Shown here one piece after another: positions 19,444-19,753 of a stretch of 64,000 nt of DNA. The position numbers were made by a program, and so were the translations under genes. Within the stretch, counting starts at the first letter, position 1. Each line of letters begins with the position of its first letter. The notes under the pieces are model-generated. The model had not been told where the DNA came from, did no database searches, and was given only the letters and a program-made list of their open reading frames with translations. Source of the stretch: Dictyostelium discoideum (lineage: Eukaryota); contig CM000151.3 in NCBI GenBank assembly GCA_000004695.1, positions 1 to 64,000 of the forward strand, read 5' to 3'.

Positions 19444-19753
19444 ATGAACAAAGTAAAAACCTTTGGAATTTAAAAATAAATAATTTTAGATTTTTTTTTT
19501 TTTACTAATTCCAAATTTATAGTTATTAAATTTATTAGGATTTGCAGTTTTCTTTGTTTTATGTCTTTTTTCTGTAGGCTCAAATGCTGAAGAAAATGGT
19601 TGCAGTTCTTGGGTCCAAGCACGTGAGGGTTATACATGTTGGGCAATGTCAAAAGCATGTGGTATTTCATTGGATTCTTTTATGAATACTAATGGTTTAA
19701 ATTTGAACTCCTGCAATTACATTCAAATTGGTCATGATTATTGTTGTAATTAA
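19444..19753 (+). CDS. small secreted Cys-rich peptide with a single LysM-like domain; join(19444..19452, 19523..19753), ~79 aa
   Basis: Not in the ORF track because the main exon lacks an ATG. ATG AAC AAA|GTAAAAAC...TTTATAG|TTATTAAAT gives MNK-LLNLLGFAVFFVLCLFSVGSNAEENGCSSWVQAREGYTCWAMSKACGISLDSFMNTNGLNLNSCNYIQIGHDYCCN*. That is a hydrophobic signal peptide, then a ~45-aa stretch matching the LysM pattern (..V...G.T.W.I.K..G.S...L...N.L....I..G..L.I) with 6 Cys. The 3-codon first exon is typical of Dictyostelium. Confidence 0.5.

Follow-up and report, generated by a model that had tools for sequence, protein, structure and literature searches.

LysM domains recognise glycans of the type GlcNAc-X-GlcNAc (GlcNAc, N-acetylglucosamine) by a conserved binding mode, and they discriminate poorly between GlcNAc and N-acetylmuramic acid (MurNAc) at the central sugar (PMC4083421). 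A 'fungal-specific' class of these domains was described by Akcapinar et al. (2015) with a consensus of 53 amino acids, in which cysteines are found at positions 5, 17, 42 and 52 and an asparagine belongs to the WNP motif at 35-37; the bridges proposed for this class are Cys1:Cys4 and Cys2:Cys3, and the LysM domains of the fern protein PrChi-A carry the four-cysteine signature too (PMC4392113). Single-LysM effectors are represented by the fungal proteins Mg1LysM of Zymoseptoria tritici (PMC7337405) and RiSLM of Rhizophagus irregularis (PMC6916333), where the lone module works through chitin binding and ligand-induced oligomerisation; such effectors protect the chitin wall of the fungus that makes them against the chitinases and immunity of the host, or suppress chitin sensing by the host. 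Here we analyse the gene DDB_G0271110, located at 19444-19753 of the first 64,000 nucleotides of contig CM000151.3 (this whole stretch is referred to as the window), next to the autophagy gene locus atg7. The host, taken in an earlier note on this DNA to be a bacterivorous amoeba, is indeed Dictyostelium discoideum AX4. Our reading is that this is an already annotated gene encoding a secreted single-LysM glycan binder, a member of a dictyostelid family under birth-and-death turnover that was duplicated beside atg7, and we would give this reading as a whole a probability of roughly 0.7.

The LysM domain and its cysteine framework

The product of DDB_G0271110 is a LysM domain, a conclusion on which a Pfam search, a profile search of the PDB, the predicted fold and a structural search agree. 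In Pfam, LysM (PF01476) was the sole family matched, at residues 39-73, with 22.1 bits against a gathering score of 20.9 (E=1.4e-4); nine of 12 family members matched it, the best of them with an E-value of 7e-10. When a family profile built from 12 sequences was compared with the PDB, the first matches were the LysM domains of chitinase A from Equisetum arvense (5bum_A, E=2.8e-11) and Pteris ryukyuensis (4pxv_A, E=1.9e-10), followed by bacterial LytE and NlpC/P60 LysMs, SleL/YaaH, Ecp6 and AtlA. The AlphaFold2 model of the mature part, 54 residues counted from the predicted cleavage site, has a β-α-α-(turn)-β layout with a predicted local distance difference test (pLDDT) value of 87.8. The predicted strands span residues 8-10 and 50-52, the helices 17-24 and 28-35, and there is a short turn at 39-42, a layout that agrees with the βααβ LysM fold, in which a pair of helices packs against one side of an antiparallel sheet of two strands. 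By their descriptions, 22 of the 23 top matches of this model in a Foldseek search of the PDB are LysM domains or contain one, with target-normalised TM-scores up to 0.79. The best ones were the chitinase-A LysM structures 5YLG, 4PXV and 5BUM (probability 1.00, root-mean-square deviation 1.4-1.7 Å); in sequence, the two Pteris modules (4PXV, 5YLG) are 39-40% identical to the window protein, and the Equisetum module (5BUM) is 28% identical. The claim of a single LysM domain made in the earlier note is thus borne out by both the profile and the fold searches. A hidden Markov model search had been named there beforehand as a result that could overturn the claim; it matched LysM and no better Cys-rich family. 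Another Cys-rich family as the better match was accordingly ruled out, Pfam giving LysM alone.

The ligand groove of a LysM domain is expected to comprise a G-D-T motif at the β1-α1 loop, an asparagine in the α2-β2 loop and the motif L/I-x-x-G before β2. In the family of the window protein, the corresponding residues Asn60 (N35 of the mature part), Gly39, Thr41, Leu53 and Gly73 vary little or not at all, and the aspartate is replaced by tyrosine in all dictyostelid members. The profile alignment showed that this asparagine, the G-I-S-L helix and the segment C-N-x-[LI]-Q-I-G are common to the dictyostelid family and the chitin-binding fern modules.

As regards the cysteines, mature Cys 5, 17, 42 and 52 coincide, together with Asn35, with the four-cysteine consensus, and six residues separate the asparagine from the third cysteine. 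The relaxed form of the published pattern matches mature residues 5-52, whereas the strict form ([^c] spacers) fails at Cys24, because this cysteine is additional. The window protein therefore shares its four cysteine positions and the conserved asparagine with the 'fungal-specific' class, for example Trichoderma Tal6, and with the chitinase A LysMs of Pteris and Equisetum (4PXV, 5YLG, 5BUM). It differs from both in an extra pair of cysteines (mature 24 and 53) and in having G-Y-T for G-D-T, and its LysM stands alone, being neither repeated nor fused to a GH18 chitinase. All six mature cysteines are invariant in 12 aligned family members, including sequences from Daphnia and from metagenomes. 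Judged by its sequence, the window protein would be best described as a six-cysteine variant of the four-cysteine class and not as a member as defined, given the extra Cys24 and the amoebozoan host; the latter implies that the class is not restricted to fungi.

By analogy with the pattern of the class, bridges C30-C77 and C42-C67 (precursor numbering) are predicted (PMC4392113). By elimination the two remaining cysteines, mature Cys24 and Cys53 (C49 and C78 of the precursor), would form an extra bridge, stapling the C-terminus to the point where helix 1 ends.

Gene structure and database record

All the parts of the gene lie on the plus strand. Exon 1 (19444-19452) consists of three codons, ATGAACAAA, which start with the ATG at 19444, encode Met-Asn-Lys and provide the n-region of the signal peptide. 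It is followed by a phase-0 intron of 70 nt (19453-19522; GTAAAA…TTTATAG, 14% GC) and by exon 2 (19523-19753), with 76 codons and the stop codon TAA (19751-19753), which encodes the remainder of the signal peptide and the LysM domain. The spliced coding sequence of 240 nt is in frame and gives a product of 79 amino acids, MNKLLNLLGFAVFFVLCLFSVGSNAEENGCSSWVQAREGYTCWAMSKACGISLDSFMNTNGLNLNSCNYIQIGHDYCCN; the peptide EENGCSSWVQAR belongs to this protein. The h- and c-regions of the signal peptide, LLNLLGFAVFFVLCLFSVGSNA, are encoded at 19523-19588, with predicted cleavage after Ala25 (SNA/EE), and the mature LysM domain of 54 amino acids at 19589-19750 (about 6.0 kDa, isoelectric point (pI) 4.5), its cysteines being at mature positions 5, 17, 24, 42, 52 and 53 and the asparagine at 35. 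An AATAAA 10 nt past the stop codon (19763-19768) is, from the reading of the sequence, a candidate poly(A) signal, and the 3' flank at this site, AACAATGATAAATAAATTTTAATAATATCTCT, is identical in a paralogue from the tandem cluster described below.

The spliced structure with a three-codon first exon joined in frame, as proposed in the earlier note, proved exact to the base, as did its intron. The same note had stated that the gene is hidden from open reading frame (ORF) finding, and this is the case: the unspliced frame from the ATG at 19444 ends after nine codons, and exon 2 cannot be reached without splicing because the TAG of the acceptor is an in-frame stop immediately 5' of it. With these frames closed, a mechanical ORF list gives only a C-terminal tail of 35 amino acids (19646-19753). 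Exon 2 is visible as a GC island, with 32-36% GC against 12-13% in both flanks; the window as a whole is very AT-rich (20.5% GC), with GC islands at exons, as one would expect of Dictyostelium.

The expectation of a signal peptide on a small Cys-rich protein also held. The maximum Kyte-Doolittle hydropathy over 12 residues of the signal peptide is 2.99, the residues at -3 and -1 are S and A (S-N-A at -3 to -1), and the signal-peptide layout (MNK…SNA/EENG in the window protein) was consistent in all ten family members examined. A seventh cysteine of the precursor is placed inside the signal peptide, so that the mature part has six and ends in CCN. From these features secretion and cleavage after Ala25 are predicted, which would give an acidic protein of 6.0 kDa with three disulphides.

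One claim did not stand, namely that the gene was unannotated. An exact-sequence look-up in NCBI, UniRef and EukProt found the 79 amino acid product to be identical to EAL71887.1 / XP_645808.1, which carries the NCBI name 'hypothetical protein DDB_G0271110 [Dictyostelium discoideum AX4]', and to UniProt Q55BK6 / UniRef100_Q55BK6, named 'LysM domain-containing protein'. It is the same gene, with all 79 residues alike and a name that is automated only, and the public gene model therefore already uses this three-codon exon and this intron. Neither the gene nor its assignment to LysM is a discovery, both having been publicly available since the AX4 genome was annotated. Sillo et al. (2008) reported a LysM gene, DDB0218607, that is 32-fold higher in the wild strain V12M2 (PMC2443395). 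This identifier could not be mapped to the window gene or to a paralogue and was not used as evidence; by name, one of the paralogues called 'peptidoglycan-binding lysin domain' is the more likely.

The dictyostelid family and the copy beside atg7

A word-index search with the single protein found one relative only (D. firmibasis, 79% identity), and it was by exhaustive HMMER and profile searches that a family was revealed. The exhaustive HMMER search returned 107 proteins at E≤1e-3, mostly with multiple LysM domains; the few of these whose source was looked up are fungal (a chytrid and Endogone) or from metagenomes. About 12 of the matches have the six-cysteine variant terminated by CC. In Dictyostelium and Polysphondylium these proteins have 76-80 amino acids, begin without exception with MNK and have a signal peptide, the six invariant cysteines and the CC end; they include the paralogues P0114 and P0115 of AX4, RB653_008945-008949 of D. 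firmibasis and CYY_004684 and CYY_008475 of P. violaceum. The window copy and its closest relatives are characterised by WVQAREGYTCWAM, a GHDYCCN end and an acidic pI of 4.4-4.5, whereas most cluster members have WHVA..GYTCYDM, a GRKYCCN end and a pI from mildly acidic to basic (4.7-8.3). The six-cysteine module terminated by CC was also observed in Daphnia magna and Daphnia sinensis (P0038, P0117; 111-113 amino acids) and in the metagenome or other sequences P0059, P0072, P0080 and P0118. The identity of the modules from Daphnia and from uncultured eukaryote-like sources is 37-42%, a patchy spread for so specific a cysteine framework.

At least two further paralogues of 79 amino acids are annotated in AX4 (P0114 and P0115, 'peptidoglycan-binding lysin domain'), on the chromosomes of 5.13 Mb and 3.60 Mb, and a tblastn search within the window found no further paralogue. 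In D. firmibasis six copies are arranged in tandem (locus L001, 6439-11376), and the closest relative of the window gene, RB653_008945, is the fifth of the six. When all six gene models were re-derived from the DNA, each had ATGAAYAAR, a phase-0 GTA…AG intron of 60-80 nt and an exon of 74-77 codons. ATGAAYAAR followed by GTA is also present in two copies of the assembly GCA_054859385.1, one in a cluster (locus L002, at 14703) and one adjacent to atg7 (locus L003). The layout of mini-exon, intron and exon was in fact found in every paralogue checked at the DNA level, in three assemblies, and at this level of comparison it lends strong support to the mini-exon; on the comparative data we consider the two-exon structure confirmed and the gene real. 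A three-codon first exon evidently defeats automated gene callers, though the AX4 annotation is correct.

The annotation of GCA_054859385.1 leaves uncalled both the cluster copy at L002 14703-15017 and the atg7-adjacent copy at L003 8201-7898, which are intact. Two other copies of the L002 cluster are merged into one model of 184 amino acids (P0112), and a fusion of 140 amino acids (P0003) exists in another assembly. Elsewhere in the L002 cluster (the loci concerned are 11130-11324 and 16828-17142) one copy is without the SSW..GYTC region (…CTDFIQLFQHYSYSC…) and has kept all six cysteines, and another has apparently gained a second intron inside the LysM domain. These two copies may be diverging or decaying members of the family.

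Selective constraint was estimated by the method of Nei and Gojobori as the ratio of nonsynonymous (dN) to synonymous (dS) divergence. Between the window gene and the fifth gene of D. firmibasis dN is 0.17 and dS 1.14, giving a dN/dS of 0.15. With the cluster paralogue the ratio is 0.19, and with the orthologue beside atg7 in the divergent assembly (L003) it is 0.23, both of these values, within D. discoideum, being indicative only as they come from 12-16 substitutions. As judged from these estimates, the comparisons show purifying selection on the family gene. K47R and I51V are the only substitutions between the mature domain of the window copy and that of the cluster paralogue. Lys47 and Ile51, together with Leu5, Asn6 and Leu8, distinguish the window copy, which is on chromosome 2.

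The window copy is placed away from the cluster and adjoins atg7, with which it is convergent, in agreement with the earlier note. The atg7 gene is on the minus strand at 22738-20345 (exons 22738-22403 and 22132-20345), its 3' end being separated from the LysM gene by 591 nt, and its spliced product of 707 amino acids contains the ATG7_N and ThiF domains. The tandem array of D. firmibasis has DAP epimerase, LSM11 and PRMT as neighbours and shares no synteny with the window. In GCA_054859385.1, an assembly labelled D. discoideum, a cluster of four copies (L002) is syntenic with that array, and the copy at 14703-15017 has 92% protein identity to the window gene. The similarity comprises the gene, about 600 nt upstream and about 175 nt downstream: in blastn, 18842-19928 of the window (plus strand) aligned with L002 14087-15208 with 82.7% identity along 1153 nt. 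Relative to the cluster copy, identity is 0.8-0.98 inside roughly 18850-19900 and falls to about 0.45 outside it, from which the window gene is recognised as a duplicate of about 1.1 kb. Origin as a retrocopy was ruled out: the duplicate has retained its intron and the upstream sequence and thus results from duplication at the DNA level.

The atg7-adjacent copy of GCA_054859385.1 (L003 8201-7898) is intact, with an intron of 64 nt and 93.5% protein identity to the window copy. The surrounding locus has 88.8% nucleotide identity to window 15359-22261, over 7 kb, and at such an identity the copy beside atg7 must have been kept in two well-separated lineages. The Atg7 protein of this assembly is 96% identical to that of AX4. 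Since 88.8% is far below what we would expect within a species, GCA_054859385.1 may represent a cryptic or mislabelled lineage.

In D. firmibasis and D. dimigraforme no LysM copy was found at a distance of up to 5 kb from atg7. The atg7 gene of both species follows, in the same orientation and after only 300-750 nt, the two genes that lie upstream of the LysM gene in the window, whereas in D. discoideum it is inverted relative to them (window 18303-22738 compared with L004 2119-7180 and L005 2463-7312). With no LysM gene near atg7 in these two species and atg7 inverted in D. discoideum relative to them, the window copy is, from the comparison of gene orders, at one junction of a lineage-specific inversion of atg7 in D. 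discoideum. It arose in this lineage as a block of about 1.1 kb duplicated from a tandem-cluster member, retained the intron and promoter region and came to lie at the inversion junction by atg7. At the other junction about 6 kb (window ~22800-28800) have no counterpart in the D. firmibasis locus. No tRNA genes were found in the window near the rearrangement.

Elsewhere in the window, the plus strand at 10462-13395 has an ORF of 977 amino acids in which an XPG N-terminal nuclease domain (PF00752, 93 bits) precedes very long repeats of Asn, of Asp and of Glu-Asn/Glu-Lys; inside it, at 11260-11310, the LysM query gave a weak tblastn match that is due to chance. The window contains two runs of 100 N, which are assembly gaps, at 1-100 and at 13570-13669, the latter between this gene and the next one, and a single N at 52513.

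Proposed function and rival explanations

The signal peptide would direct the precursor of 79 amino acids into the secretory pathway, and its cleavage would leave an acidic protein of 54 amino acids and about 6 kDa that is one LysM domain and nothing else. The most likely activity is the one that every characterised LysM domain has: the groove formed by the β1-α1 and α2-β2 loops would bind GlcNAc-X-GlcNAc glycans non-catalytically, the ligand being exogenous, that is bacterial peptidoglycan or fungal chitin. As the closest solved relatives are chitin-binding modules, our best guess is that the protein may be a soluble monovalent binder of chitin oligomers or of peptidoglycan strands from prey bacteria or soil fungi. 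The tandem amplification of the family and the copy number varying among species fit a role in environmental interaction, without proving one.

In having a signal peptide, exactly one LysM and no catalytic domain (no other Pfam family was matched), the window protein resembles the effectors Mg1LysM and RiSLM. No specific sequence relationship to them was detected, however, and Ecp6 was the sole named LysM effector among the PDB sequence matches at E<=1. Moreover, Dictyostelium has to our knowledge no chitin wall, so the biological logic of those effectors cannot be the same.

Several points weigh against the reading of the gene as coding for a secreted glycan binder. The Pfam score of the window protein exceeds the cut-off by just 1.2 bits, and two of the three dN/dS values come, as mentioned, from few substitutions. 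D. discoideum makes cellulose and is not known to make chitin, its walls being cellulose-based, so that any ligand has to be exogenous. The acidic charge of the mature protein disfavours a cationic membrane-active antimicrobial mode. The presence of G-Y-T in place of G-D-T in all dictyostelid members means that the ligand groove may be altered. A lone LysM module is usually a weak binder, and it is multiple modules that raise binding (PMC4083421). In the searched paper texts no mention of DDB_G0271110 was found. An exact-protein look-up in assembled public runs and genomes, including Logan, gave no contig for the window protein and hence no transcript evidence, an absence that is uninformative because AX4 seems to be outside that index; the same look-up found nothing for the AX4 paralogues P0114 and P0115 or for the upstream neighbour ORF.

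Some of these points would also suit a protein in which the LysM fold is used as a disulphide-stabilised scaffold, the product being a Cys-rich peptide secreted for signalling or adhesion (a factor of development or of cell density, for instance) that acts via a protein receptor and not via GlcNAc glycans. Dictyostelium is not known to have endogenous chitin or peptidoglycan, the G-D-T motif is changed throughout the dictyostelid members, an extra disulphide is predicted, and the protein is an acidic single module of 6 kDa, of which low glycan affinity is expected (PMC4083421). Nevertheless, the most conserved residues of the family are precisely those of chitin-binding LysMs (G-x-T-C, G-I-S-L, the α2-β2 asparagine and C-N-x-L-Q-I-G), and among solved structures those nearest to it are genuine chitin-binding modules, with 39-40% identity. 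No other Pfam family was matched, and we regard a scaffold of this kind as unlikely.

We also think it improbable that the copy in the window arose recently and is redundant, with hardly any function of its own, perhaps weakly expressed or already decaying into a pseudogene, the biology residing in the copies of the tandem cluster. Such an explanation would account for a duplicate of 1.1 kb that is confined to the D. discoideum lineage, for a mature domain with only two substitutions relative to the cluster paralogue, for an NCBI name that is just 'hypothetical protein' when two paralogues are named 'peptidoglycan-binding lysin domain', and for the lack of a transcript-derived contig in an index apparently without AX4. 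However, both AX4 and the divergent assembly with 88.8% identity have an intact ORF, intact splice sites and an intact upstream stretch of about 600 nt, and the dN/dS of 0.23 was obtained between the two atg7-adjacent orthologues themselves, so that constraint appears to have continued since the duplication. That there is no gene at all, and that the ORF, the splice signals and the likeness to LysM arose by chance in AT-rich intergenic DNA, is hardly credible, even if the first exon has 9 nt only, GT and AG dinucleotides are common and the Pfam match is a marginal one. Exon 2 stands out as a GC island, the layout has been kept in more than eight paralogues and orthologues despite many synonymous changes (dS about 1.1 and dN 0.17 against D. 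firmibasis), and profile, predicted structure and fold search all agree on LysM; these comparative data effectively refute chance as the explanation. The secreted single-LysM glycan binder is thus the reading that we prefer.

We are tempted to go further and to suggest, tentatively and in the knowledge that it may well prove wrong, that the single-LysM proteins with six cysteines and a CC end constitute a family of secreted microbe-glycan binders under birth-and-death turnover, used by dictyostelids in feeding on, or in defence against, bacteria or fungi. Besides its dictyostelid members this family would have scattered ones in Daphnia and in uncultured eukaryotes, the 'fungal-specific' class would be older and wider than the fungi, and the window gene would be a lineage-specific addition made during the inversion of atg7.

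As the gene and its LysM annotation were already public, the present analysis has no weight as a claim of discovery. What it adds is incremental and concerns the family: a six-cysteine variant outside fungi, tandem arrays with a conserved three-codon exon, and a lineage-specific duplicate at the junction of the atg7 inversion. The social amoebae thus have a conserved family of single-LysM proteins of 6 kDa, with three predicted disulphides and a copy number that varies by species, whose domain belongs to the Cys-bearing class formerly called fungal-specific. Dictyostelium is a standard model for the encounter of phagocyte and bacterium, and, as a reasonable inference from the fold and no more, this family of small and easily synthesised LysM lectins would therefore be a cheap and testable candidate for the recognition of peptidoglycan or chitin.

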